From assembly GCA_963851365.1 (NCBI GenBank), contig CAWKPA010000006.1, positions 49,353 to 113,352 on the forward strand: a stretch of 64,000 nt of DNA, given 5' to 3'. This document shows, piece after piece, positions 17,166 through 62,117 of this stretch (the first letter of the stretch is position 1; every line of letters starts with the position of its first letter). The position numbers and the translations under genes were made by a program. The notes under the pieces were generated by a model. The model made no database searches. It was not told the DNA's origin and saw nothing but the letters and a program-made list of their open reading frames with translations. This stretch comes from an uncultured delta proteobacterium. GTDB taxonomy: Bacteria > Desulfobacterota > Binatia > DP-6.

Positions 17166-17927
17166 CTAGCGACGCGCGCTCTGGGCGTGGTGCATTTCGC
17201 GCGCCAGGCGCCCGAACACCCCTACACCGTCCGCACCGAGGGTCGGGCCCACCTGCACCGCCTGCGCGCCCTTTGTCAGCGCACGGGTGACGTCCCAGCC
17301 CGAACCGATGCCGCCGCGCGCGATCACGTCGAGCGGGGCCCGCACCGCGAGGAGCAGCTTCTCGAACTCGGTGAACTCGTTGCGCACCACGACGGCCCGG
17401 GCGCCGCCGTCGATCAGCGCTTCGACCACGGCGCGATGGGGGAGCGGGCAGCGTTCCGGCAGCCGCACCCAGACGGGGACGGCGCTCGCCGCCGCCATGG
17501 CGCCCACCAGCGTGCGCAACGTCGCGAGGTCCTCGCAGGGGGCGATGGTGGCCTCGACCCAGGACTCGCCGAGATGGGCCTCGATCGCCGCCACGCCGGC
17601 ATCGGCGAAGACGCGCGCCAGCGTGGTGAACTCGTCGAGCGTGCCCCCGGCCACGCTGGCCACGACCGGCGGGCCGCCGGCGCCGGCCAGCTCGCCCGCG
17701 ACGGGCGCGAGCTTGTCGACGCCCGGGTTCTTCAGCGAGCGGAACTCCGGATGGACGAAGGGATGCACCGTGGCCGTCCGCAGCACCACGGCGCCGGTCT
17801 GGGACCGGGCGAGCGCCTTCAGCTCGCCCATCGACGTCACCGATCCGGCGGCGTTCATGGCGGCGAACGGCAGCGACACCCCTCCGGCATTGACCGCCCA
17901 GGCGGCAGCATCCGACACGCGGGTCAT
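17166..17927 (-). CDS. dihydroorotate-dehydrogenase-like (DHOD family TIM-barrel) protein
   Basis: 253 aa with NAAG, NPG and C-terminal GGIGSGWDV ... AQAVQVGP motifs of the DHOD/DHPD-like family. The ATG overlaps the upstream stop in an ATGA. Confidence 0.6.
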   Translation of the reverse strand: MTRVSDAAAWAVNAGGVSLPFAAMNAAGSVTSMGELKALARSQTGAVVLRTATVHPFVHPEFRSLKNPGVDKLAPVAGELAGAGGPPVVASVAGGTLDEFTTLARVFADAGVAAIEAHLGESWVEATIAPCEDLATLRTLVGAMAAASAVPVWVRLPERCPLPHRAVVEALIDGGARAVVVRNEFTEFEKLLLAVRAPLDVIARGGIGSGWDVTRALTKGAQAVQVGPTLGADGVGVFGRLAREMHHAQSARR

Positions 17928-19363
17928 GGCTCCCGCACCTCGATCGTCACTTCCACGAAGTCCGCCGCCCGGGCATCCCAGCGGAACGCTCGCGTCTCGG
18001 CCGCCTCCCAGGCATCGGAGATGACGACGTAGGTCACGTCGGGATACGCGGGTTCGCCGTCGAAGAGCGCACGGGCGCGGTCCTCGGCCGAGAAATACGC
18101 CCCGCTCTTCGGATGCGAGTGGTAGAGCACCGCGAGGCGTTCGCCCGCGCGCTCGGCTGCATCGAGCAGCTCGTACGCGTCGGCCCGCGGCGTGTACGCG
18201 CTCTCCGCCGTTCGCGTGTAGACCAGGGGCTCCCGGGCATGGAGCTCGTTCTGCACGTTGACGAAACGAATCACCCGCTGGCTCGCCCCGTCCACCACCG
18301 CCCCGCAGCACTCCTCCGCACCCGTCTCGCGCGCATGCGCCACCAGGGCGTCGAGCGTCGGGCGCGCCAGCACGAGTGGCGGCAGCCGGCTGTCGCGCTC
18401 GCGGCGGACGCGCGCCCGGATCACCCGCGCCAGGGTGTCGTTGCGCGGCGTCGGAACACCCCGGCGCGCGCCCTCGCGCACCAGGTGACCGGTGATGGCC
18501 TCGATCTCGGTGGGACGCCCGCGCTCCAGGTCCTGCAGCATCGAGGACCGGTGCCCCGCCGTGGGCGGCAACAGCGTCCCGTAGAAGTGCCGGCGATAGC
18601 TGGCGGCGTCCGGCCACGGCAGGGCGACGCCCGCCGCGCCCGCGACGGCCATCGCCTCGTCGAGCACGCCGTCCATGAGGGCGCGCGTGTCGGGATCCGC
18701 CGCCAGGTGCCCGTACGGCACGCCGAGCAGCGCACCCAGCGGGTTCAGCGCCGCGTTGTAGAGCGCCTTCGCCCACAACTCGGCCGTGATCGCGTCGGTG
18801 GCCCGTGCGGGGATGCCGGCCGCGGCGAGCATCTCCGCCCACCGCGCGGCCGCCGCCACGCGCGCGGCGTCGCGCGAATCGGGGCTTCCGATCAGGACTG
18901 GGGCCGCCTCGACGGTGACACGCACGCGGCCGGGCGCGAGTATCTCCGCGCCGAAGATCACACGCCCGCCGAGCACTCGCGACGCGCCGACGATCGCCGC
19001 GGCGCGCTCCAGATTGCCGAGACCATTCTGCAACGAGAGCAGATGCCCGTCCGTCGCCAGCCGCTTCTCGATCGCGAAGGCCATGGCGGCCGTGTCCCAG
19101 GACTTGACGGTGAGGAAGACGGCCGTAAAGGTGTCGCGCAACGCCAATACGTCGGGCACGCAGTCGAGTCCGCGCACATGGTGGTCGCCGAAGCATCCCT
19201 CGATGCGCAGCCCGTCGCGCCGGATGGCGTCGAGGTGCGCCACCCGACCGACCAGCGTGACCGGCCAGCCGCGCGCCGCGAGCAGCCCGCCGATGACCGA
19301 GCCGACCGCCCCGGCGCCCGCAATCAGGATCGGTCCTGCCGGCATGGTCTGGCGTTCCGTCAT
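17924..19363 (-). CDS. 2-dehydropantoate 2-reductase (PanE/ApbA) fused to a C-terminal JAMM/MPN+ metalloprotease domain
   Basis: N-terminus has the Rossmann motif IAGAGAVGS and KPR-like sequence over about 310 aa. The C-terminal ~150 aa carry EECCG ... YHSHPKSGAYFSAED, which matches the JAMM motif E-x(n)-HxH-x7-S-xxD. Confidence 0.7.
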   Translation of the reverse strand: MTERQTMPAGPILIAGAGAVGSVIGGLLAARGWPVTLVGRVAHLDAIRRDGLRIEGCFGDHHVRGLDCVPDVLALRDTFTAVFLTVKSWDTAAMAFAIEKRLATDGHLLSLQNGLGNLERAAAIVGASRVLGGRVIFGAEILAPGRVRVTVEAAPVLIGSPDSRDAARVAAAARWAEMLAAAGIPARATDAITAELWAKALYNAALNPLGALLGVPYGHLAADPDTRALMDGVLDEAMAVAGAAGVALPWPDAASYRRHFYGTLLPPTAGHRSSMLQDLERGRPTEIEAITGHLVREGARRGVPTPRNDTLARVIRARVRRERDSRLPPLVLARPTLDALVAHARETGAEECCGAVVDGASQRVIRFVNVQNELHAREPLVYTRTAESAYTPRADAYELLDAAERAGERLAVLYHSHPKSGAYFSAEDRARALFDGEPAYPDVTYVVISDAWEAAETRAFRWDARAADFVEVTIEVREP

Positions 19364-26642: not shown

Positions 26643-29600
26643 TCACCAGGTGTCCACGCACGGTCGTTTCCGGCCGGTACGCGGGGGCGGCGGCGGCAGC
26701 GCACGGAGCGCGGTGCTCAAGCGCGTCCGCGTCTCGGCCGGGTCGATGACGTCGTCGATCTCGAACACCGACGCCATGTTGATGCCCTTGCCGTGCTCGT
26801 ACGCGCGCGCCACCATCTCCTCGAAGGCGGCGCGGCGGGCAGCGGGGTCCGCGATGGCCTCCAGCTCGCGGCGATAGCCGAGCTTCACCGCCCCTTCGAG
26901 GCCCATGCCGCCGAACTCGCCGGTCGGCCACGCGACGGTGAACACCGGGACGTGGAAGCTGCCGCCCGCCATGGCCTGCGCGCCGAGCCCGTAGCCCTTG
27001 CGCAGCACGACGGTGAAGATCGGCACCGTGACGCTGGCACCGACCACGAAGAGCCGGCAGCAATGGCGCACGAGCGCCGTCCTCTCCGCCTCGGGTCCCA
27101 CCATGATGCCGGGCGTGTCGCACAGCATCAGCACCGGCAGGTCGAAGGCGTCGCAGAGCTGGAGAAAGCGCGCCGCCTTGTCGGCGCCGTCGGCGTCGAT
27201 GGCGCCGCCGAGATGCGTCGGGTCGTTGGCGATCAGGCCCATCGGCCGGCCCTCGACGCGAATCAGCGCCGTCACCATGCCCCGGCCGAAGCGGTGGCGC
27301 AGCTCGAGCACCGAACCCTCGTCGGCCAGCGTGTCGATCACCGCGCGGACGTCGTAGGCGCGCAGCCGGTTCTCGGGGATCAGGTGGCGGAGCCGGCGCT
27401 GGTCGGCACACGTCCAATCCACCACCGGCCCCTGGAAGTACGCGAGGTATCGCTGCGCGACCCGGACCGCCTCCGCCTCGTCCGCCACCAGGACGTCGAC
27501 GACGCCGTTCGGCGCCTGCACCGACATCGGACCGACTTCCTCCGGCCGGAACACACCGAGCCCGCCGCCTTCGATCATGGCCGGCCCGCCCATGCCGACG
27601 TTGGCGTCGCGCGTCGCGATCACCACGTCGCACGAGCCGAGCAGCGCCGCATTGCCCGCGAAGCAGCGCCCCGCGACGACGCCGACCAGCGGCACCAGCC
27701 CGCTCAGGCGGCCGAAGAGGTGGAACGCCATCGTGTCGAGTCCGGCCACCCCCGGCCCGTCGCTGTCCCCGGGTCGCCCGCCGCCGCCCTCGGCGAAGAG
27801 CACGACCGGCAGGCGCCACTGCGCGGCGAGCTCGAACACGCGGTCCTTCTTGCGGTGGTTGTGCAGCCCCTGGGTGCCGGCGAGCACCGTGTAGTCGTAG
27901 GCCACCACCAGGCAGCGGGCGCGCTCCAGCCCCACGAGACTGCCGTTCACGCGCCCGATGCCGGTCACCAGCCCGTCGGCCGGCGTCCGCGCGATCAGAT
28001 CGTCGAGCGCGCGCCGGCGGCGCTGCGCCGCGACCACCAGCGAGCCGTACTCGACGAAGGAGCCCGGGTCGCACAGCTCCTCCACGTTCTCCCGCGCCGT
28101 CCGCCGGCCGCTCGCATGCCGGCGGGCCACCGCTTCGGGACGCGCGGCGTCCCGCGTGATCGCCTGGCGGCTGAGCACCTCCTCGAGATCGGGCCGCCTG
28201 GCGTCGAGGTCGACAACCCCGACGCTCCCGGTCGCGGCCACGCCGACGTCGCCCTCCTCGACGAAGGCGAGCGCGCTCCCTTCGAGCACCGTGTCGCCCA
28301 GCGCAACCAGGAAGCGCCGGACGACGCCGGCCACCGTGGAGGCGACGACGTGCTCCATCTTCATCGCCTCCAAGACCAGCAGCGGCTGTCCCGCGTGCAC
28401 CGGCTCGCCCTCACGGACTTCGACGCTCACCACGCTGCCCTGCATCGGCGCCGTCACCACTGCCGTGCCGGCCGGCGCCTCCGGGGCGCCGCCCGCCGCG
28501 GCGGGGGATGCGGCGGCCTTCCCGTGCGTCAGGACGGCCAGCGGATCGAGCGCATCGACGCGCGCGCCGGCCAACGCCGCCCCGCCCCCGGGCGCGGGCG
28601 CGCCCGGGACCGCGTCGTCCGCCGGGCCGATCAGCTCGGCGGCGTGCGCTTCGACGAAGCCGGTGTGCACCCGGTGCGCCGCCACGTCGGGGTGGCGCAG
28701 CAGGCGGCGCAGGAACGGCAGGTTGGTGGCGACCCCGGCGACGGCGCACTCGTCCGCCGCGCGAGCCGCCCGCGCCACCGCATCGGGGAACGCGCGCGAC
28801 GTGCTGTGCGCGACGATCTTCGCCAGCAGCGCGTCGAAGCGGGGATGCACGCGGGCGCCCGCACGCATCGCCGTGTCGACGCGGATCCCGGGGCCGCTCG
28901 GCAGCTCGAACGTCGTGACGACGCCGATCGACGGCCGCACGCCGCCCGCGGCATCGATCGTCTCCGCATTGACGCGCAGCTGAATCGCGAAGCCGCGGGG
29001 CGGCGGCGGCGCCGTCTCTGCCAGCTCGAGGCGATCCAGCGTCAGACCGCTCGCCAGCTCGAGCTGCAGCCGGACCAGGTCGATGCCGGTCACCGCCTCG
29101 GTGACCGTATGCTCGACCTGCAGGCGCGGGTTCACCTCCAGGAACGCGATCGCCGCATCGTCCCCCGGATCGGTCGCATCGACCAGGAACTCGACGGTGG
29201 CGAGGTTGTCGAGCCGCACCGCCCGGGCCAGAGCCAGCGCGGCCTCGAGCAGGCGCGCCCGCACGCCGTGGACCAGGCCAGGGCTGGGCGCCACCTCGAC
29301 GATCTTCTGGTGCCGGCGCTGCAGGCTGCACTCGCGCTCCCACAGATGGGTGACGGCGCCGCTGCCGTCGCCCGCCACCTGCACCTCGAGGTGCCGCGCG
29401 CGCGGCAACAGCCGCTCGACATAGAGCGCGCCGTCGCCGAAGGCCTGACGCGCCTCGGAGCGGCAGCGCGCCACCGCCTCGTCGACCTCGTCCGGCCGCG
29501 ACACCACCCGCATCCCGCGCCCGCCGCCCCCGACCACCGCCTTCACCACCGCGACGCCGCCGGGCCCGAGGGACGCGAGAAACGCGCGCACCTCGTCCGC

Positions 29601-30017
29601 GCCGACCGGAGCGGTCGACCCTGGCAACACCGGGACGCCCTGCTCCGCCGCCGTCGCACGGGCCCGCAATTTGTCGCCGAAGAGCTCGAGCAACTCCGGC
29701 CGCGGGCCGACGAACGCGATGCCGGCATCCGCGCACAGGCGGGCAAAGCCGGCGTGCTCGGACAGGAACCCCCAGCCGGGGTGAACCGCGTCGCAGCCGG
29801 CGTCGCGCGCCACGGCCACCAGCTGCGCGGCGTCGAGGTAGGCCGCCGGGCCGTCGCCATCGAGCGCGCGTACGTCGGGCACGTGGCGCACGTGCGGCGC
29901 GTCGGCGTCGTCCCGCGCGTGGACGGCGACGGCGTGGATGCCCAGCTCGGCCGCCGCCCGCGCGACGCGTACGGCGACCTCGCCGCGGTTGGCGATGAGA
30001 AGGCGCGTTGGAAGCAC
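26643..30017 (-). CDS. single-chain biotin-dependent acyl-CoA carboxylase (BC-BCCP-CT; long-chain acyl-CoA carboxylase-like)
   Basis: 1124 aa. The biotin carboxylase domain begins LLIANRGEVAVRVARAAAELG. The biotinyl domain carries EAMKMEH. The C-terminal carboxyltransferase domain has GGGRPGDSDG ... MGGPAMIEGGGLG. GTG start at 30017. Confidence 0.9.
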   Translation of the reverse strand: MLPTRLLIANRGEVAVRVARAAAELGIHAVAVHARDDADAPHVRHVPDVRALDGDGPAAYLDAAQLVAVARDAGCDAVHPGWGFLSEHAGFARLCADAGIAFVGPRPELLELFGDKLRARATAAEQGVPVLPGSTAPVGADEVRAFLASLGPGGVAVVKAVVGGGGRGMRVVSRPDEVDEAVARCRSEARQAFGDGALYVERLLPRARHLEVQVAGDGSGAVTHLWERECSLQRRHQKIVEVAPSPGLVHGVRARLLEAALALARAVRLDNLATVEFLVDATDPGDDAAIAFLEVNPRLQVEHTVTEAVTGIDLVRLQLELASGLTLDRLELAETAPPPPRGFAIQLRVNAETIDAAGGVRPSIGVVTTFELPSGPGIRVDTAMRAGARVHPRFDALLAKIVAHSTSRAFPDAVARAARAADECAVAGVATNLPFLRRLLRHPDVAAHRVHTGFVEAHAAELIGPADDAVPGAPAPGGGAALAGARVDALDPLAVLTHGKAAASPAAAGGAPEAPAGTAVVTAPMQGSVVSVEVREGEPVHAGQPLLVLEAMKMEHVVASTVAGVVRRFLVALGDTVLEGSALAFVEEGDVGVAATGSVGVVDLDARRPDLEEVLSRQAITRDAARPEAVARRHASGRRTARENVEELCDPGSFVEYGSLVVAAQRRRRALDDLIARTPADGLVTGIGRVNGSLVGLERARCLVVAYDYTVLAGTQGLHNHRKKDRVFELAAQWRLPVVLFAEGGGGRPGDSDGPGVAGLDTMAFHLFGRLSGLVPLVGVVAGRCFAGNAALLGSCDVVIATRDANVGMGGPAMIEGGGLGVFRPEEVGPMSVQAPNGVVDVLVADEAEAVRVAQRYLAYFQGPVVDWTCADQRRLRHLIPENRLRAYDVRAVIDTLADEGSVLELRHRFGRGMVTALIRVEGRPMGLIANDPTHLGGAIDADGADKAARFLQLCDAFDLPVLMLCDTPGIMVGPEAERTALVRHCCRLFVVGASVTVPIFTVVLRKGYGLGAQAMAGGSFHVPVFTVAWPTGEFGGMGLEGAVKLGYRRELEAIADPAARRAAFEEMVARAYEHGKGINMASVFEIDDVIDPAETRTRLSTALRALPPPPPRTGRKRPCVDTW

Positions 30018-31231
30018 TAGCCGCCATCCGCCCAGAAGGCCTCGACGTGCTCGAGGTCCCAGACGAACTCGTGCACCTCGACCGCGCGGCCGCCCGCGAA
30101 GCGGATGCGCAGGCACGTCGGGTTGTCGAGGACGCGCCCGTCCGGACGCCGGCCATGACCTCGAAAGAAGACGACCCCCTCGCGGTCGTCGGCGAGGACG
30201 CCCTCGACATTTAGCCGGAAGGTGCCCTCTGTGAGGGCGAGCACGCGTCCCAGGAACGCGAGGATGGCGTCGTGACCGGTGTGGTCGCCGGCGAGCGCCC
30301 CGCGCCGGCCCGGGAAATGCCAGGTGGCGTCGGGCGCGAAGGCCGCCCGAATCGCGTCGACATCGCCGGCCCGGAAGGCGTCGAACAGCGCGCGGATGCG
30401 CGCCACGTTCGGGTGGGCGGGCCGCACGAGGGCCGGCGCCCGGTCGGCGACGAGCGCCACGAGCGGCCCCAGCTTGGGCGGCGACGCCTCCAGCGTCACG
30501 CGCACGCCGTGCCCGTCGATCGCCTCGGAGCACACGGGCCCGATCGACGCGACGACGATCCGATTCAGCGCCGCACGCAGCGCCTCCGCGTCGGGCGCGA
30601 TCCGAAAGAGGTGCGCCACCTGCACCGCGCTGGTGAACACGGCCACGTCCAGCGCGCCCGCGACGAGCCCGGCGGCGGCGCGGTGCAACGGCCCGACGTC
30701 CTCGGGGAGGGCCCAGCGGTAGACCGGCACGCGGAGCGCGCGGAGCCCGCGTGCCGCGATCGCGTCGAGCAAGGCGGTGGGCGGGGCGCCGTACTCCTGC
30801 ACGGCCACCAGGCTTCCCGGGGGCAGCGACAAACCGTCGAGCACGGCCAGCGCTTCGCGCCAGGTGTGGGGCGCGGGCACCGGGCGGGCGCCGGCCACGT
30901 CCAGCTCGCGCAGCGCCGCCAGCGGCTTCGGGCCTCGCGCCACGACGGGGACGCGGCGCAGGCCGTCCAGGAGGCGGGGCGCCGCATCGCCCGCTGCCGC
31001 AGCCATGGCCCGGGTGCCGACGCCGGTCAGCAGGATCACCGCACCGAGGTCGCCGCGGTCGAAGTGGTCGATCAGCGCCTGCGTCGGACCACGCTCCGGG
31101 AGCTGCGCCTCGCGGAGTGCGGGCGCGCTCACGAGGGAGGCGCCGTGTCGGGCGAAGAGCTTCGCCATCTCGTCCGCGCGTCGCGCCTCGAAGGCGACGA
31201 TCCGGACCCCGTCGAGTGCCGCCGGATTCAT
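30017..31231 (-). CDS. HemD-like (uroporphyrinogen-III synthase fold) protein fused to a SnoaL-like/NTF2-like domain
   Basis: 404 aa. The N-terminal ~260 aa have two HemD-like half-repeats (ILLTGVGT... and VAVFTSAVQV...). The C-terminal ~130 aa look like a SnoaL/ketosteroid-isomerase-like domain. TAG stop at 30017-30019; the final G is shared with the carboxylase GTG. Confidence 0.55.
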   Translation of the reverse strand: MNPAALDGVRIVAFEARRADEMAKLFARHGASLVSAPALREAQLPERGPTQALIDHFDRGDLGAVILLTGVGTRAMAAAAGDAAPRLLDGLRRVPVVARGPKPLAALRELDVAGARPVPAPHTWREALAVLDGLSLPPGSLVAVQEYGAPPTALLDAIAARGLRALRVPVYRWALPEDVGPLHRAAAGLVAGALDVAVFTSAVQVAHLFRIAPDAEALRAALNRIVVASIGPVCSEAIDGHGVRVTLEASPPKLGPLVALVADRAPALVRPAHPNVARIRALFDAFRAGDVDAIRAAFAPDATWHFPGRRGALAGDHTGHDAILAFLGRVLALTEGTFRLNVEGVLADDREGVVFFRGHGRRPDGRVLDNPTCLRIRFAGGRAVEVHEFVWDLEHVEAFWADGG

Positions 31232-31313
31232 GCGGCACCCTGGTCGGCGACGGGGGAGCCTGTCAACCCGACGCGCGCTTGCTCGCGGTGCCCGGTCGGG
31301 ACAGTTTGCCCCG

Positions 31314-42612: not shown

Positions 42613-43791
42613 CTACTTCGCGATGGTGATGGGGATACTCGCATCCTGGACCGCCTGGACGGTCGTCTGGAAGAGGACGTTGAGGATGGCGAACGACTGT
42701 CGGTCCCAGCGGGTGTCGTTCACGCTGTAGTGCTTGCTCCGATACTCGATCGACGGGACGTTGCCGCTGGGGCCCGAGCCGGTGACGTTGATCTTGAGCG
42801 TGAACGGGGGGCTCGGTGCGGTCTCCTGGAGCCAAGGGTTCGGGGGGACCTCGTAGCCCTCGTCGAGATCGATGCCCAGTGCGAGGAAGCCGAGAATCTG
42901 CATCAGGCTCCGCAGCTTGATCGCCCCCTCGAGCGCCACGCCGCTCGCTGGGTGGAGGGAGAGGTGAACGAAGCCGGCAGGATTCCTCTTGATCCGCTCG
43001 TTCAGCTGGAAGCGCTCCAGGTCGGTGAGCGACATCGGGTCGACGTTGGTCACGATGACGCGACCCGCCTCGAGCCGCGTCAGTTCGAAGCCGCCATCGG
43101 CCTTCTGGCGCCACCGCAGGCCCTTGTCGAAACCGTTGTTGATGTCCTCGGCGCGCGGGATGGCCCTCAAGTCGGCAACGAGAATGTCTTCGAAGACGAG
43201 GGCGCGAACGAACAGCTGCCGGGATTCGTTGAGCGCCTGGAGAATCGAGGCGATCCGGCGGAACTCCTCGTACTCCTGCGGGCGCCGGGGGTCGTTCTCG
43301 ATGAAACGTACGAAGCGGCCGTCCTCGGCCTGGACCTCGATGCCGGCCGCCATGATTCGCATGGCCTGGTCGATGCGGGTGCCCTGGAACACGACGAACT
43401 CGAACGTGCTGTCCGGGAACGGTGTTGCGATGCGCTTGGTGAACTCTTCGCCTGTGATGGGCAGGATGCTGAAGGTAGGATTCTCCGAGGAGCTGGCGCC
43501 GATGTTGATATCGAGGAAGTTGGACTTGGCCGCCTGGGTGAGCTGGCCACCGGCCCCGGCCGTCGTCGTCCAGTCGAAAGTCGCGGCGATGCTGGAGGTG
43601 GTGGTGAAGTGCACCGATTCGCCGTGGTGCAGGCGGGCGATGTTGAGGAGGAGCAGCTTCTCGTCGAGGGACTTGGCGACCTCGTCGTAGCTCAGCACCT
43701 GCCGCTCCAGCACCGGTGGCCCGAGACAGCCGGCCAGAAGCAAGGCGAGCGAGACGAGGCCCAACGGGAGCGCCATGCATCGATCATGCAT
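42613..43791 (-). CDS. lipoprotein of unknown function
   Basis: About 392 aa with signal peptide and lipobox LLLAGC. Confidence 0.6.
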   Translation of the reverse strand: MHDRCMALPLGLVSLALLLAGCLGPPVLERQVLSYDEVAKSLDEKLLLLNIARLHHGESVHFTTTSSIAATFDWTTTAGAGGQLTQAAKSNFLDINIGASSSENPTFSILPITGEEFTKRIATPFPDSTFEFVVFQGTRIDQAMRIMAAGIEVQAEDGRFVRFIENDPRRPQEYEEFRRIASILQALNESRQLFVRALVFEDILVADLRAIPRAEDINNGFDKGLRWRQKADGGFELTRLEAGRVIVTNVDPMSLTDLERFQLNERIKRNPAGFVHLSLHPASGVALEGAIKLRSLMQILGFLALGIDLDEGYEVPPNPWLQETAPSPPFTLKINVTGSGPSGNVPSIEYRSKHYSVNDTRWDRQSFAILNVLFQTTVQAVQDASIPITIAK

Positions 43792-43874
43792 CGTTCCCAC
43801 GATCCCCGACCGTCCCGCGCGTCGGCGATCGCATCCACTCCCCTCCGAGCAACCCTCCAGCATGGCCTGGAGCG

Positions 43875-43891
43875 GTGTGCCTGGTGCACAC
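43875..43891. promoter_or_regulatory. palindromic putative operator in divergent lipoprotein/cfa intergenic region
   Basis: GTGTGC-ctggt-GCACAC: 6-bp perfect inverted arms with a 5-bp spacer. Confidence 0.2.
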
Positions 43892-44063
43892 ACCGCTTCG
43901 TTACTCTCTTACTGCAACGCGGATGGGAGGTAAAAGACCGGATCGCGGCTCCGCCCGTTGTGGCGATGCCACATGGCCCACACCGGCCCGCGCCGGCAGA
44001 GGAGGGCGCGCGCAGTCCGCAACGGACTTGAACGAGGCGCAGCCGCCTGCGAAACATCGGGAC

Positions 44064-47191: not shown

Positions 47192-47809
47192 ATGTCGATC
47201 ACGCCCCGCTCCGCACCTGGTCCCGTCGCGCGGACCCTCGGGAAGCTCTGGCTGCGACTGTTCGGCTGGCGGGTGGAGGGGCGTCTGCCGCATCACCCCT
47301 GCGCCGTGGTCATCGCCGCCCCGCACACGTCGAACTGGGACCTGCCCTTCATGCTGGCGGTGTCCTGGGTGCTCGGCGTCCGGCCGGCGTGGCTCGGCAA
47401 GCACCGGCTGTTCCGGCCACCGTTCGGCGGCCTGATGCGCTGGCTCGGCGGCGTCCCGGTCGATCGCCGCGCGCCGGGCGGCATGGTCGCGGAGGCCGCC
47501 GCCCGCCTCCGCGAGGCGGATCGCCTCATGCTGGTGGTTCCGCCATCCGGAACGCGCAGTCGGGCCCCGCGCTGGAAGTCCGGGTTCTACCACATCGCCC
47601 GGACCGCCGAGGTGCCGATCCTCTGCACGTTCCTCGACTACCGCCGCCGCGTGGGAGGGATCGGCCCGACCGTCGCGCCGACCGGCGACATCGCCGCCGA
47701 CATGAAGGTCATCCGCGCGTTCTACGAGCCGATCCGGGGGCGCCGCCCGGCGCAGGCAACGCCCGTGCGCCTCGCGGAGGAGGACGGCGCGGCCGCCGAA
47801 CGGGCCTGA
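47192..47809 (+). CDS. lysophospholipid acyltransferase-like protein (PlsC family)
   Basis: HxxxxD acyltransferase motif APHTSNWD. Confidence 0.7.
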   Translation: MSITPRSAPGPVARTLGKLWLRLFGWRVEGRLPHHPCAVVIAAPHTSNWDLPFMLAVSWVLGVRPAWLGKHRLFRPPFGGLMRWLGGVPVDRRAPGGMVAEAAARLREADRLMLVVPPSGTRSRAPRWKSGFYHIARTAEVPILCTFLDYRRRVGGIGPTVAPTGDIAADMKVIRAFYEPIRGRRPAQATPVRLAEEDGAAAERA

Positions 47810-47819
47810 GCCGCCCCGC

Positions 47820-49919
47820 TCACTCCGCGCGCAACACCTCGCGCCGGCAGCGCCACGGCCCGACGGCGCCGACGCGCATCCGGTCAGCGCCGCTGCCGAT
47901 CACGAGAGCCGTCTCGAGCGACGCCGTATCCGCGCCGGCACACGCCGTGGGCCGGGCGATGGTCGCGCGCCGCGCCATGACGACGACGCGGACGCGTTCC
48001 CGGCGCGGGCGCGGGCGATGCAGCACGACGCGCAACCGCGGCTCGACCCCGCGGGCGGTCACGAACACGGCCACCTTCTTCTTGCGTTTGCGCGGCGACG
48101 GCGCCAGCGGCCACGATGCTCCGCTGGTCGCGACCAGTTCGCCGGCACCACCGACCTCGTCGAGCAGATCGGCGACGACGACCGTCGCGTCCTCGAGCGC
48201 CATGGTGGGCGGCAGCGACATCACGCCTTTCAGGCGGAGCCGACCTCGGCGCGGCCGGGCGAGCCCAGCGGCGCGGCCGCGCACGGTGAGCCCGGTCACC
48301 TCACCGGGCGTCGGCGGAGTCCAACCGCCGCCGCCGTGCGGCGGCACCCGGCTGCCGCAGAACGTCACGTCGAAGCCCGAGAACGGCGCGCCGCCCGCGA
48401 CCGCCGACGACGGGGTGCACCCGAAGCCGCCCGCGATGTCGTCGTACTGCCACGCGTACGCCGCCGGACACGCGGTCCGGAAGACCACGAAATACGGCGC
48501 TCCGCCGCCGGCGAGCGTCGCCGCGTCGAGCCACGCCTGGTTCGTCACACCCGCCCCGGCCGAGTACAGCGTCAGCGCGGCGCTGGTGTCCGACTCGCAT
48601 CTCCCCAGGCCACTCTCCGTCGGGGGCATGCACAGGTGGGACACCTGCTGGACGGTCATCGTCCCGTCGTTCACCGGGTACGTGGCGGTCTGGCAGGTGT
48701 AGCCCAACGCGCCGGCGAAATAGCCACCGCCCTTCTGCGCGGTCAGATAGCCGCCGCACGGGGTGCCGTCGGGAAGCGGAACGTAGTCGAGCGGCTCCCC
48801 CCCGCAATTCTTCACTTCGCCCGTCGCCGCATCCGTCCAGCCTCGCTCGTTGAAGTGCGGGATGGTCGACTGCGGCGGCTGCGTGTGCAGGCAGACGCCC
48901 TGGCCGGGCGGCAGGGTGTAGGTCGACGCGAAGGTGGGCTGGACGAACTGCGTTCCGGCCTTGCAATCGAGCTGCGAGAAGGCCGTGGGCACCGCCTGAT
49001 TGGGCGATGCCTGGGCCGTACCATCCACCATGTTCTTGGCGCAGTAGAGGTCCAGGTTCGTCACCCGACCACCGTTCGAGCCGCACGTCCACGTCTCGGT
49101 GCGCTCGGTGGCGCACCCGAGCGCGGCCGGCGGATCGGGCCGCTGGCAGCGGGTGCACGGGTCCAGGCACCCGATCACGTCGCCGCCCTCGAGGACCTGC
49201 AGCGGCGCTGGACACGACGCGTCGAGGTCCGACATGCAGCCTGCCGTGTCGCATGCGACGACGTCGGTCGTGCCGGACACCACCTGCCCGCCGCCGATCG
49301 GCGTTGCCGAGGTCTCGACATTGTACCCGGCCGCCAGACTGACGTCGTAGTTCACGGCGTCCGCCGTCGAAGTGACTTCGAACTGCGTGACCGGGTTGGT
49401 CGGCGATCCGCCCCCGTTCCCGGCGCTGCAGTCGAGCAATTGCCGGCCGGAGTTGTCGGTGTCGAAGCACGCCCCCGTGCGACACGAGAGCGTGGCGGGC
49501 GACGCCGACGCATCGAGTGCGCACCCCGTACGAGGCCAGAACGTGCCCGACTCCCACGCCTGCGGCATGCAGAACACGGCGGCCGTGACGCACTTGTCGT
49601 CGGCGCCGCAGGGGGCGCCGCCCGGGCAGTCCGTCGCCGTCGCGCAGGTGCAGAGCCCCGAGTCCGCGTCGCACGCCCCGGACGGGCAGTCCGTGTTCGA
49701 CGCGCACATGCCGGCGAGCGCCCAATTGCCGGACTGCGGCGGATGGGATGCCGGGTCGCTCACGCTGCGCTGGGCGATCCAGATCGGCTCGGCGCAGGCG
49801 CTGCGCAGCGTGTAGGTGTACTGGGTCGCCGGGTCGCATTGCGCCCGCGCACCGGCCGCCCACCCGACGACGCCCAGCCCGAGCGCGATCCCCACCATGC
49901 CCCCGCGAGCGTCCCACAT
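47820..49919 (-). CDS. secreted cysteine-rich thaumatin-like protein with C-terminal extension
   Basis: Signal peptide. Thaumatin-family landmarks are YTYTLRSACAEPIWIAQ (compare ATFTITNNCPYTVWAA), FWPRTGC ... SCRTGAC..DCS..GGG.P.T.FEV.....NYDVSLAAGYN, and a C-terminal ACPAAYAWQYDD ... FDVTFC. There are at least 30 Cys and a ~140-aa basic C-terminal tail. Confidence 0.65.
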   Translation of the reverse strand: MWDARGGMVGIALGLGVVGWAAGARAQCDPATQYTYTLRSACAEPIWIAQRSVSDPASHPPQSGNWALAGMCASNTDCPSGACDADSGLCTCATATDCPGGAPCGADDKCVTAAVFCMPQAWESGTFWPRTGCALDASASPATLSCRTGACFDTDNSGRQLLDCSAGNGGGSPTNPVTQFEVTSTADAVNYDVSLAAGYNVETSATPIGGGQVVSGTTDVVACDTAGCMSDLDASCPAPLQVLEGGDVIGCLDPCTRCQRPDPPAALGCATERTETWTCGSNGGRVTNLDLYCAKNMVDGTAQASPNQAVPTAFSQLDCKAGTQFVQPTFASTYTLPPGQGVCLHTQPPQSTIPHFNERGWTDAATGEVKNCGGEPLDYVPLPDGTPCGGYLTAQKGGGYFAGALGYTCQTATYPVNDGTMTVQQVSHLCMPPTESGLGRCESDTSAALTLYSAGAGVTNQAWLDAATLAGGGAPYFVVFRTACPAAYAWQYDDIAGGFGCTPSSAVAGGAPFSGFDVTFCGSRVPPHGGGGWTPPTPGEVTGLTVRGRAAGLARPRRGRLRLKGVMSLPPTMALEDATVVVADLLDEVGGAGELVATSGASWPLAPSPRKRKKKVAVFVTARGVEPRLRVVLHRPRPRRERVRVVVMARRATIARPTACAGADTASLETALVIGSGADRMRVGAVGPWRCRREVLRAE

Positions 49920-50032: not shown

Positions 50033-51385
50033 TCAGCGTCCGAGGCGTCGCACGATCTCGCGGTGACGGGCGCGCGTCAACGGATACGTGCGCGCCAGGA
50101 CGGCACCGATCGCCAGGAACACGGCCGGACCCGCCGCCGTCATCCAGCGGATCGCCTGGCGCGCCGTCTCGGTCTGCTCGCCGCCCTTCCGGTACCCGAG
50201 CAGGTCGAGGATGCCGAGGACGAGGAACACCGCGACGGCGCCGCCCAGCTTGCGCAGGAAGGTGAACATGCCGTTGTAGAGCCCCTCGCGCCGCTCGCCG
50301 CTCTCCAGCTCGTCTTCGTCGATCACTTCGCCGAGCATCGCCCACGGCATCAAGTCGACCGCGGCGAATCCCACGCCGATCAACGGCACGGAGAGGAAGA
50401 CCACCCAGGACGGCCAGCTCGGCTGCACGAGGCCGAGGCCGAGGCTGCACACGATCCACCACGACGACGCGACGACGAACACCTCGGCCTTGTCGCGCCC
50501 CCGCGCCGCACGCAGCCAGAACGGCAGCGCGCCGATCACCGCCACCAGGAACACCACCATCAGCGGCTCGAATTCCCCGGAGCGACCGAGCCAGAAGCTG
50601 ACGTAGAGAATGAGCAGCGCGCTCGCCAGGTCCATCCCGATCCGGCCCATGATGTAGATCGCGGTGAGGCGCATGAAGGTGCGCTGGCGAAATGCGAGGC
50701 GGAACCCGTCCAGCAGGCCGCCCGCAGCAGGCCGCCCCCCGAACTCGGGTCGCTCGAAGGTCACGCGATGGACGGCGAACCACGGCAGTGCGAGCGCGAC
50801 GCCGTAGACGAGACCGGCGGCGGCGAAGCCGGTCCGCCCGCCGCCGAACGCCTCGGCGATCGGGCGGACGGCCAGCGCCGCGAAGATGCCCAGATTCGCG
50901 CCGACCGCGCGATAGGTGTGGAGCGATGTCCGCGCGTCGTACCCGAGAGCCATCTCGGGAATCAGCGCCAGGTACGGCACGGAGAGCACTGTCATCGCCG
51001 TGGTGACGAGGCAGTAGACGACCGCGTAGTACGCGAAGCGCCCCCATTCCGACGCGATGCCCGGATCCGCCCACACGAGCGCGAACGCCGCGCCGTACGG
51101 CAGCGCGCCGAGCAGCAGCCAGGGACGCCGCCGGCCCCACCGCGAGCGCGTCCGGTCGGAGATGCGTCCCATGATCGGGTCGGTGACGGCGTCGACGGCG
51201 CGACCCGCCAGCGGCACGAGCCCCGCCAGCAGCGGTCGCAGGTCAGCCACCTGCACCAGGAAGTAACTCGCGTAGATGAGGGAGAACGCGGCGAGCGCCG
51301 TGTTGGTGCTGAGGTCGCCCAGCGCGAAGACCGCCTTCCGGACGGGTCCGAGCTGCGGCGACGACCCGGCGGGTCCGCGGGTCAT
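50033..51385 (-). CDS. MFS transporter (GPH/MelB-like sugar:cation symporter family)
   Basis: 450 aa with 12 TM helices; includes the GPH-like motif DRTRSRWGRRRPW. Confidence 0.8.
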   Translation of the reverse strand: MTRGPAGSSPQLGPVRKAVFALGDLSTNTALAAFSLIYASYFLVQVADLRPLLAGLVPLAGRAVDAVTDPIMGRISDRTRSRWGRRRPWLLLGALPYGAAFALVWADPGIASEWGRFAYYAVVYCLVTTAMTVLSVPYLALIPEMALGYDARTSLHTYRAVGANLGIFAALAVRPIAEAFGGGRTGFAAAGLVYGVALALPWFAVHRVTFERPEFGGRPAAGGLLDGFRLAFRQRTFMRLTAIYIMGRIGMDLASALLILYVSFWLGRSGEFEPLMVVFLVAVIGALPFWLRAARGRDKAEVFVVASSWWIVCSLGLGLVQPSWPSWVVFLSVPLIGVGFAAVDLMPWAMLGEVIDEDELESGERREGLYNGMFTFLRKLGGAVAVFLVLGILDLLGYRKGGEQTETARQAIRWMTAAGPAVFLAIGAVLARTYPLTRARHREIVRRLGR

Positions 51386-60823: not shown

Positions 60824-62117
60824 GGGACATAGGTAACACTTCAGTCCGGAGACATGGGTGACACTTTGAGGGCAGTGGAGGCACCGCAGGAGGTGCCTCA
60901 TGCCCTGGAGGGAGACGACACCCATGCATCAACGCACCCTGTTCATAGCTGATCATCTGCGCGGCGCCCGCTCGGTGACGGAGCTCTGCGCCGAGTACGG
61001 CATCTCCCGCAAGACGGCCTACAAGTGGATCGATCGCTACATCCGGCGCGGGCCACTGGGCCTCGAGGATCGCTCCCGCCGGCCCCGCGGTACCCCTACC
61101 GCAACGCCCGCCCCGATCGTTGACGCGCTGATCGCGCTGCGCCAACGGCATCCGACCTGGGGCCCGAAGAAACTGGTGGCCTACCTGCACCGCCGTCACC
61201 CCACGTGGTCGCTGCCGGGCCGCTCGGCTACCGCCGCGCTGCTCAAGCGCCGCGGGTTGATCCGCCGCCGCACCCCACGACGCGTGATCGGCCATCCCGG
61301 CAAGCCCAACGCGTTGATCGTGGCACCGAACCAGGTCTGGTGCGCGGACTTCAAGGGCCAGTTTCGGATGGGCAACGGGCGGTACTGCTATCCGCTCACC
61401 GTGACCGATGGCTTCAGCCGCTACCTCCTCGGCTGCCACGGCCTGGCGAGCACCGCCGTCCAGGGCGCCAAGCCCGTCTTCACGCGGCTGTTTCAGGAGT
61501 ACGGGCTGCCGCAGTACATCCGCAGCGACAACGGCGTCCCGTTCGCCACCAATACCCTGGCGCGGCTCTCGCGACTGTCGGCGTGGTGGGTGCGGCTCGG
61601 CATCCTCCCCCAGCTCATCGAACCCGGGCGACCGCAGCAGAACGGGCGGCACGAGCGCATGCACCGGACGCTGAAGCAGGAAGCCACCCGGCCCCCGGCC
61701 GCCGCGATGCCCTCGCAGCAACAGCGGTTCGATCGCTTCCGCCGCGAGTTCAACGAGGAGCGCCCTCATGAAGCCCTGGACCAGCAGACGCCCGCGGCCG
61801 TGTATCAGCCATCGCCCCGGCCAATGCCGAGCAAGCTGCCTCCGCTCGAGTATCCCGATCGCTTCGAAGTCCGCTACGTCAGCGCCAACGGGGGCATCCG
61901 CTGGAACAAGGCCTGGGTGAACGTGTCCACAACCTGCATCGGCGAGTACGTCGGCCTCGACGAGATCGACGACGGGATCTGGAACGTGTACTTCGGGCGC
62001 TTGCGACTCGGCCGCCTCTTGGAACGATCGATGAAGATCGAGGACGCCTATGGGAGACTCTATCGGCACCGGCGACTGTTACCCATGTCCTCGGACTAAT
62101 CTGTCACCCATGTCCTC
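60824..62117 (+). mobile_element. IS481-family insertion sequence
   Basis: About 1.29 kb. The left end has tandem GACATAGGTAACAC / GACATGGGTGACAC. The right end has the inverted copies CTGTTACCCATGTCC / CTGTCACCCATGTCC. It encodes one DDE transposase. Confidence 0.8.
60900..62099 (+). CDS. IS481-family DDE transposase
   Basis: 399 aa with an N-terminal HTH (SRKTAYKWIDRY) and an integrase-core DDE domain (CADFKG ... RSDNG ... QQNGRHER). Confidence 0.85.
   Translation: MPWRETTPMHQRTLFIADHLRGARSVTELCAEYGISRKTAYKWIDRYIRRGPLGLEDRSRRPRGTPTATPAPIVDALIALRQRHPTWGPKKLVAYLHRRHPTWSLPGRSATAALLKRRGLIRRRTPRRVIGHPGKPNALIVAPNQVWCADFKGQFRMGNGRYCYPLTVTDGFSRYLLGCHGLASTAVQGAKPVFTRLFQEYGLPQYIRSDNGVPFATNTLARLSRLSAWWVRLGILPQLIEPGRPQQNGRHERMHRTLKQEATRPPAAAMPSQQQRFDRFRREFNEERPHEALDQQTPAAVYQPSPRPMPSKLPPLEYPDRFEVRYVSANGGIRWNKAWVNVSTTCIGEYVGLDEIDDGIWNVYFGRLRLGRLLERSMKIEDAYGRLYRHRRLLPMSSD

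Follow-up and report, generated by a model that had tools for sequence, protein, structure and literature searches.

An enlarged thaumatin-like protein with two conserved cysteine-rich inserts and a C-terminal beta-sandwich module in an uncultured Binatia bacterium

We analyzed a 64,000-nucleotide stretch of DNA from an uncultured bacterium of the Binatia (contig CAWKPA010000006.1, positions 49,353 to 113,352; hereafter the window), concentrating on one gene that encodes a thaumatin-like protein (TLP). Its complete coding sequence begins with ATG and specifies 699 amino acids, which is about three times the length of a plant TLP and agrees with the open reading frame (ORF) described in an earlier, sequence-only reading of this DNA. 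We show that the product is a member of the TLP superfamily with predicted Sec-dependent export, an expanded core and a C-terminal module (Table 1).

Because the window has a GC content of ~72%, long ORFs can arise in it by chance. We found that the GC content at third codon positions (GC3) is 0.80–1.00 in every 40-codon interval of the 699-aa ORF, including its C-terminal 175 codons, and the whole ORF, with its supposed tail, therefore looks coding. The gene's GC content (0.72) and GC3 (0.91) match those of the surrounding housekeeping genes, among them GroEL, Ffh, PEPCK and Mla. An identical protein beside the same acyltransferase gene was assembled from two other, unrelated sequencing runs, and the gene is therefore no assembly artefact. 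Scans of the region from 47.5 to 50.3 kb returned no promoter-like sites and a single terminator-like match, located inside the coding sequence and at chance level, while tRNA and Rfam scans of the window returned no matches.

The thaumatin family model PF00314 matches the protein at 73.6 bits (E 2.4e-20 in a Pfam search; curated cut-off 27.4 bits) in two collinear stretches, residues 112–280 (profile positions 31–168) and residues ~476–510, and is present in the precomputed annotation of all 47 aligned homologs; an NCBIfam search of the protein returned nothing. The best sequence match in the PDB is cherry Pru av 2 (2ahn, E 1.4e-12), and with a profile of the expanded family 13 TLPs of known structure are matched, at E values as low as 1e-23. 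HMMER alignments to solved TLPs reproduce each of the three landmark blocks named in the sequence-only reading: an N-terminal strand block (TYT..SACAEPIWIAQ), a central block (FWPRTGC..CRTGAC..DC..P.TQFEV..NYDVSLAAGYNV..C..GC..DL...CP..LQV) and a C-terminal block (F..ACPAAYAWQYDD..GFGC ... FDVTFC). The protein has 36 cysteines, of which 34, an even number and nearly all conserved, lie in the TLP part (residues 28–521). Thirteen align to canonical TLP cysteines (C42, 133, 146, 151, 164, 223, 228, 236, 251, 255, 484, 501 and 521), and the domain II cysteines near the junction with the second insert are not mappable one-to-one.

An AlphaFold2 model, built from the alignment of 47 family sequences (A1), has a mean predicted local distance difference test score (pLDDT) of 91.3 and a predicted template modeling score of 0.88, with pLDDT below 50 only at residues 1–23 and 529–535. 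It contains the domain I beta-sandwich, domains II and III and the inter-domain cleft of a TLP, and its top structural match is the Amycolatopsis TLP 7p22; the figures given in the same comparison for TLXI and MoHrip2 are 13.6 and 13.4. Since both a significant hidden Markov model (HMM) match and the beta-sandwich were found, the thaumatin assignment stands, and we regard the fold as certain. A PROSITE thaumatin signature does not match the protein; none of 5 plant PR-5 controls matches it either, so this comparison is uninformative.

The TLP core is split three ways (residues 27–52, 113–262 and 471–523) and is expanded from ~225 to ~500 residues by two disulfide-rich inserts. The sequence-only reading had named a large cysteine-rich insert; the cysteine richness is confirmed, but there are two separate, conserved inserts. 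Among residues 1–26 are a single Arg and 17 hydrophobic residues, with A-R-A preceding Gln27; a lipobox is absent, and the homologs have equivalent hydrophobic N-termini. The segment that follows lines up with TFTNNCPNTVWPG in Mal d 2 and Pru av 2 and forms strands at residues 33–40 and 46–52 in the model. Insert 1 occupies a site where classical TLPs have a short loop. Its cysteines (C72, 78, 83, 90, 92, 98, 104 and 110) are kept in 35–37 of the 36–37 sequences covering the region, and it is modeled with a pLDDT of 94–97. Insert 2 stands in place of ~20 residues of domain II, is modeled with a pLDDT mostly between 87 and 97, has 10 cysteines conserved in 44–47 of 47 sequences, and contains the near-invariant motifs LYCAKN, QASxNQGTxTAF, PCGGY, LGYTCQ and HLCMPPTxSGLGxC. 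Y292, N296, N307, Q308, T310, T312, D318, Y391 and Y407 are among its conserved residues. Judged by cysteine conservation and mean column identity (0.65 for each insert compared to 0.70 for the core), both inserts appear about as constrained as the TLP core. We found no copy of insert 2 outside a TLP: PF00314 is carried by every match of the full-length search except P0038, which matches only partially and over a short stretch. The last core segment aligns to YSEIFHNACPDAYSYAYDDKRGTFTC of 2ahn.

Table 1. Positions of the TLP gene, its parts, its neighbours and tandem paralogs on two metagenomic contigs (window coordinates unless a contig is named).
Feature	Residues	Position	Strand	Remarks
TLP coding sequence	1–699	47820..49919	-	stop codon 47820–47822
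Signal peptide, predicted Sec-type	1–26	49842..49919	-	MWDARGGMVGIALGLGVVGWAAGARA|Q; hydrophobic core, then A-x-A-type site, read from sequence
First beta-strands of thaumatin domain I	27–52	49764..49841	-	YTYTLRSACAEPIWIAQ, after family-conserved Cys28
Insert 1	53–112	49584..49763	-	acidic 60-aa, 8-Cys mini-module, unmatched in Pfam/PDB alignments
Central thaumatin core	113–262	49134..49583	-	from Pfam/PDB alignments; cleft residues T126, R130, E181, D192, A197, E202
Insert 2	263–470	48510..49133	-	208-aa, 10-Cys lobe in gap between the two HMM-matched stretches
C-terminal thaumatin segment	471–523	48351..48509	-	PYFVVFRTACPAAYAWQYDDIAGGFGC ... FDVTFCGS; D493/D494; second HMM stretch
Gly/Pro-rich flexible linker	524–539	48303..48350	-	pLDDT <50 at 529–535; variable, low-complexity in homologs
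C-terminal Ig-like beta-sandwich, 160 aa	540–699	47823..48302	-	LLDEVGGAGEL motif; conserved Cys660/Cys691 pair, Trp689
PF01553 (PlsC-type) acyltransferase		47192–47809	+	convergent with TLP gene, 10-bp gap
MFS_2 transporter		50033–51385	-	upstream of TLP gene, same strand, 113-bp gap
Tandem TLP paralogs, contig L020		10001–12091 and 12161–14218
Tandem TLP paralogs, contig L021		10001–12106 and 12185–14239

The sequence-only reading had described the C-terminus as a basic tail of ~140 residues. It is indeed rich in Arg and Lys (32 in 160 residues, net charge +18, isoelectric point (pI) 11.8), next to an acidic TLP part (net charge -28, pI 4.1), but it is a folded 160-aa domain (pLDDT 95.4) that recurs in hundreds of other proteins and is basic in one subclade only. 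No Pfam or NCBIfam model matches it. In an exhaustive HMMER search covering 1.84 billion cluster representatives (clustered at 50% identity), 503 proteins matched the module at E ≤ 1e-3, of which 291 reach E ≤ 1e-10. A word-indexed search with the module profile, which this one replaced, had returned only 2 proteins, probably because low-complexity basic words flooded its 8000 candidates. In 125 of the 150 matches listed, the module ends at most 15 residues from the C-terminus, and it typically closes a protein of secreted type; 17 of the 150 are small proteins (≤235 aa) with little beyond the module; by a crude test, 6 of these 17 have a hydrophobic N-terminal leader. The 59 longer carriers bear F5/8-type-C domains (14 cases), NedA-like galactose-binding domains (9 cases) and, in single cases, a GH17 beta-1,3-glucanase, PKD, Big_1, CARDB, beta-helix or propeller domains. 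The module (proteins P0056–P0202) occurs in metagenome-assembled genomes (MAGs) of Binatia and Methylomirabilota, and the carriers with a named source are from Methylomirabilota MAGs. Some members of the TLP family bear CBM96, InlB B-repeats or FG-GAP/VCBS repeats in place of the module.

With its beta-sandwich fold, its position at the extreme C-terminus and its attachment to very different extracellular-type N-terminal domains, the module resembles sorting domains such as the C-terminal domain of the type IX secretion system (T9SS) and PEP-CTERM. Unlike both, it also exists as a small stand-alone protein; compared to the T9SS domain, it is about twice the size and comes from MAGs of Binatia and Methylomirabilota instead of Bacteroidota. 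We found no HMM match or terminal motif of the known sorting domains (T9SS C-terminal domain, PEP-CTERM or LPXTG-type) in the window protein. Because stand-alone copies exist, the module probably does more than tag proteins for secretion. Its most likely task is to tether the protein to an anionic surface, which could be that of the target or the envelope or matrix of the cell itself. A family of this size without a Pfam or NCBIfam match merits its own definition.

In osmotin, the acidic cleft is formed by Glu84, Asp97, Asp102 and Asp185 (PMC4360817), and together with Arg44 these four acids make up the REDDD motif, which has been tied to glucan binding, glucanase and antifungal activity (PMC3048497, PMC11800479). 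The cleft residues and beta-1,3-glucanase or glucan-binding activity of TLPs are treated in several papers (PMC3048497, PMC4360817, PMC11800479, PMC13106811). Petre et al. report that, among 18 representative TLPs of eukaryotes, 13 have REDDD or an equivalent in fully conserved form (PMC3048497); the motif is thus typical of TLPs and not strictly defining.

We carried the osmotin numbering over through the alignment to 4l2j and found that the window protein lacks REDDD, reading T126-E181-D192-A197-D494. The acidic cleft, which the sequence-only reading had proposed to map, is therefore only partly preserved. Three of its acids are invariant in the family: Glu84 corresponds to Glu181 (E in 47 of 47), Asp97 to Asp192 (D in 47 of 47) and Asp185 to Asp494 (D in 46 of 46, as is D493). 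Arg44 is replaced by Thr126 (T 37, S 3, V 3, R 3) and Asp102 by Ala197 (A 40, N 3, S 2, D 2). Overall, TEDAD is found in 37 of 47 members and REDDD in 2 of 47. Other residues of the cleft region (N190, Y191, N200, W128 and Y488) are near-invariant. Glu202 is present in 42 of 47 sequences, none of which has Asp197, while the only two members that keep REDDD, and with it Asp197, both have Ser202 (P0047 and P0048). These correlated states suggest that the lost carboxylate was relocated, and Glu202 may have taken over the role of Asp102.

Fifty-three homologs came up in the full-length search. Almost all are metagenomic, and many are 664–730 aa long and 43–66% identical; both inserts and the module are kept at 55–66% identity across the full-length homologs. 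In species-representative genomes, 19 loci were found, none of them in the window's own genome, with a best match of 66% identity. Ten of these are labelled Candidatus Binatia or Binataceae, and the others include Casimicrobiaceae, Geminicoccaceae, a Syntrophus-labelled MAG and unclassified proteobacterial MAGs. A core-only profile (A4) also finds plant PR-5 proteins at 30–38% identity and other bacterial 'thaumatin family proteins'. In a rough neighbor-joining (NJ) tree of 28 sequences and 196 columns, which is indicative only and too crude for deep history, the members of the expanded family form a single clade, separated from the TLPs of plants and fungi and from other bacterial TLPs (split support 79 of 100), with the REDDD-bearing members basal within it. 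On the question of lateral acquisition versus a bacterial lineage, which had been raised at the outset, the tree argues against recent acquisition from a eukaryote.

TLPs have been taken as eukaryotic defence proteins, and a 2011 genome-wide survey (PMC3048497) and a 2026 review (PMC13148976) list plants, animals and fungi only. A bacterial thaumatin as such is not new, as shown by the PDB entry 7p22 and by the name 'thaumatin family protein' that NCBI gives to some MAG proteins. Bacterial TLPs had been called scarce and uncharacterised in the sequence-only reading; with this crystal structure, the NCBI naming and the dozens of metagenomic members found here, they are less scarce than that, while in the searchable literature they do remain functionally uncharacterised. 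Our literature search found no link of thaumatin to Binatia and no earlier description of the double-insert architecture, of the T-E-D-A-D cleft with Glu202 or of the C-terminal module family.

The TLP gene does lie between acyltransferase and transporter genes, as had been noted, but this arrangement is not conserved elsewhere. The PlsC-type acyltransferase and MFS_2 pair recalls the enterobacterial lplT-aas arrangement of a lysophospholipid transporter and an acyltransferase; compared to lplT-aas, the pair is on opposite strands and is split by the TLP gene. We rejected an operon or synteny with these two genes, as no such linkage occurs at the 19 genome loci or on 4 further contigs. The TLP gene behaves as a stand-alone unit with no conserved partner. 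On two metagenomic contigs (L020 and L021), full-length expanded TLP paralogs lie in tandem, 70–80 bp apart, among genes for a GT2 glycosyltransferase, an NAD-epimerase, a methyltransferase, a sulfotransferase, a split transketolase and a PEP-mutase, a setting whose gene content appears surface-glycan-like or phosphonate-cluster-like.

Elsewhere in the window, an insertion sequence-type transposase (rve integrase core with helix-turn-helix domains) lies at 60900–62099 (+), where the GC content falls from ~0.72 to 0.63–0.66. The most GC-rich stretch (0.76) is a 1531-aa ORF at 26643–31238 (-) that encodes a fused acyl-CoA carboxylase, with biotin carboxylase, biotin carboxyl carrier protein and carboxyltransferase in a single chain; its Pfam domains start only at residue 411, so that its true start is probably further downstream. 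At 17924–19363 (-), one ORF has ketopantoate reductase (PanE/ApbA) domains and, at its C-terminus, a prokaryotic JAB domain; this combination is unusual, and it may be that two neighbouring genes were taken for a single ORF. A 426-aa ORF at 42613–43893 (-) has coding-type GC3 (0.88) and no Pfam match at E ≤ 1e-5.

We infer the protein's function from these features. In the reading we prefer, to which we assign a probability of about 0.5, the exported TLP would bind, and possibly cleave, a beta-glucan-type polysaccharide in its enlarged cleft, while the C-terminal module would keep it attached to a surface. After export, disulfides would form among the 34 cysteines of the TLP part and the 2 of the module. 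The protein's place of action would then be outside the cytoplasm and its target a polysaccharide, a beta-1,3-glucan-type polymer being the most plausible, with fungal or oomycete walls or a microbial glucan as candidates. The ligand would sit in the cleft between the domains, in which the invariant Glu181, Asp192 and Asp494 remain, and insert 2 would probably enlarge domain II into a second cleft wall, by analogy with the second domain of GH64 enzymes. The opposite charges of the basic module and the acidic TLP part would favor surface attachment. We prefer this reading because of the retained carboxylates and aromatics, the GH64-like size and shape, and the carbohydrate-binding partners found both in the family and among the module carriers.

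Several observations weigh against this proposal. Two of the five REDDD residues are gone, and small TLPs in which a proper acidic cleft is missing act as inhibitors and not as glucanases (PMC3048497). The pI ranges from 4.8 to 11.9 across the module family, so that the basic charge is a subclade trait and is not conserved. The organism has an Mla system and hence is probably diderm; the Sec signal alone would bring the protein to the periplasm only, and no outer-membrane export route is identified. The loci compared have no conserved glycan-utilisation genes as neighbours, and no biochemical data on any bacterial TLP were found in the searchable literature.

Loss of cleft residues is also what would be seen in a non-catalytic binder that kept the TLP scaffold and lost the glucanase chemistry, serving as a lectin, an adhesin or an enzyme inhibitor in the manner of wheat TLXI on xylanases. 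We consider this unlikely, although it is the alternative that survives best: three cleft carboxylates are invariant, the conserved Glu202 arises exactly where Asp102 is lost, and the pattern at positions 197 and 202 looks like upkeep of acid chemistry and not decay. Moreover, TLXI-type proteins are small TLPs without domain II, whereas the window protein enlarges that domain.

The tandem paralogs among glycosyltransferase, epimerase and PEP-mutase genes on two contigs raise another alternative, a self-directed role in which the protein remodels or organises the cell's own exopolysaccharide or envelope glycan. The basic module could bind an anionic matrix, and one homolog (P0022) ends, by eye, in a PEP-CTERM-like sequence (VPEP, a hydrophobic stretch and RRHR), a weak hint that no Pfam or NCBIfam model matches. 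The PEP-CTERM signal is linked to exopolysaccharide-producing bacteria. The glycan-gene neighbourhood is absent from the window, from the genome loci (L001–L019) and from the other two contigs (L022–L023), and we judge this role improbable. An osmotin-like antifungal toxin that permeabilises fungal membranes, its attachment driven by the basic module, is a still more improbable account. That the gene was recently acquired from a plant or fungus, is eukaryotic contamination or is a long ORF arisen spuriously in GC-rich DNA would fit the description of TLPs as eukaryotic (PMC3048497, PMC13148976) and the plant TLPs that are the best PDB sequence matches, but we consider it barely credible, given the gene's GC and GC3, the separation of the family's clade from plant and fungal TLPs, the homologs on long bacterial MAG contigs, mostly of Candidatus Binatia, and the conservation of inserts and module.

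Beyond the preferred reading, a bolder proposal, which we put forward tentatively and regard as doubtful, is that the expanded clade would be a new glycoside-hydrolase-type subfamily, in which insert 2 builds a two-lobed, GH64-like groove and the catalytic carboxylate moved from Asp102 to Glu202. If so, uncultured Binatia would own a dedicated tool against fungal or oomycete beta-glucan walls. Independently of this, the C-terminal domain may be a new surface-anchoring or export module common to many secreted proteins in Binatia and Methylomirabilota. To our knowledge, Binatia are known only from genomes. If beta-glucan is bound or cleaved, the protein would suggest that bacteria of this group antagonise fungi or scavenge glucan, and it would offer enzymologists a natural experiment in rebuilding the TLP/GH64 cleft. 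An uncultured soil and sediment lineage of bacteria keeps a deeply diverged TLP, doubled in size, under strong constraint and sometimes as tandem paralogs. Existing knowledge is not overturned, and the value of the work lies in cataloguing and in the hypotheses it provides.

Among known systems, the GH64 laminaripentaose-producing beta-1,3-glucanases (3gd9, 7vtk, 5h9y and 5h4e) resemble the window protein in size and shape, and the GH64 family model has no sequence match in it. CAZy family GH152 is built around TLPs (PMC11800479); membership of the window protein by sequence is plausible, and one presumed cleft carboxylate (Asp102) is gone from it. The Amycolatopsis rifamycinica TLP (7p22) has an ordinary size of 220 aa, with neither inserts nor an extra module. 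Its sequence is missed by the expanded-family profile at E < 0.01, while plant TLPs are detected, and it therefore belongs to a different bacterial TLP lineage.

Other bacterial TLPs likewise combine export and a TLP domain with additions, namely a Vicinamibacteria protein that carries ricin-B lectin domains (P0254) and four further proteins (P0243, P0244, P0247 and P0251). Unlike the window protein, they keep GRFWPRTGC and VDG[FW], and thus Arg44 and Asp102, have an insert of ~60 aa at most and fall outside the expanded clade in the NJ tree. The latter four are another class of bacterial TLP, 320–390 aa long and in a clade of their own (support 87 of 100); all have a ~60-aa cysteine-rich insert (CCxCS...GCSPYS) and intact GRFWPRTGC/VDGW, and two (P0244 and P0247) have lipoprotein-like N-termini.

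The closest known kind is the classical long TLPs, or PR-5 proteins (osmotin, PR-5d, Pru av 2, Mal d 2 and Jun a 3; PF00314, with the glucanase members in CAZy GH152). Compared to these, which have ~205–225 aa and 16 cysteines, the TLP part of the window protein has ~500 aa, through its conserved inserts of 60 and 208 aa, and 34 cysteines. Thr and Ala replace Arg44 and Asp102, a new Glu202 is added, and the Asp of the classical C-x-T-G-D-C motif has become Ala. The window protein further differs in having an additional C-terminal domain and a bacterial host.

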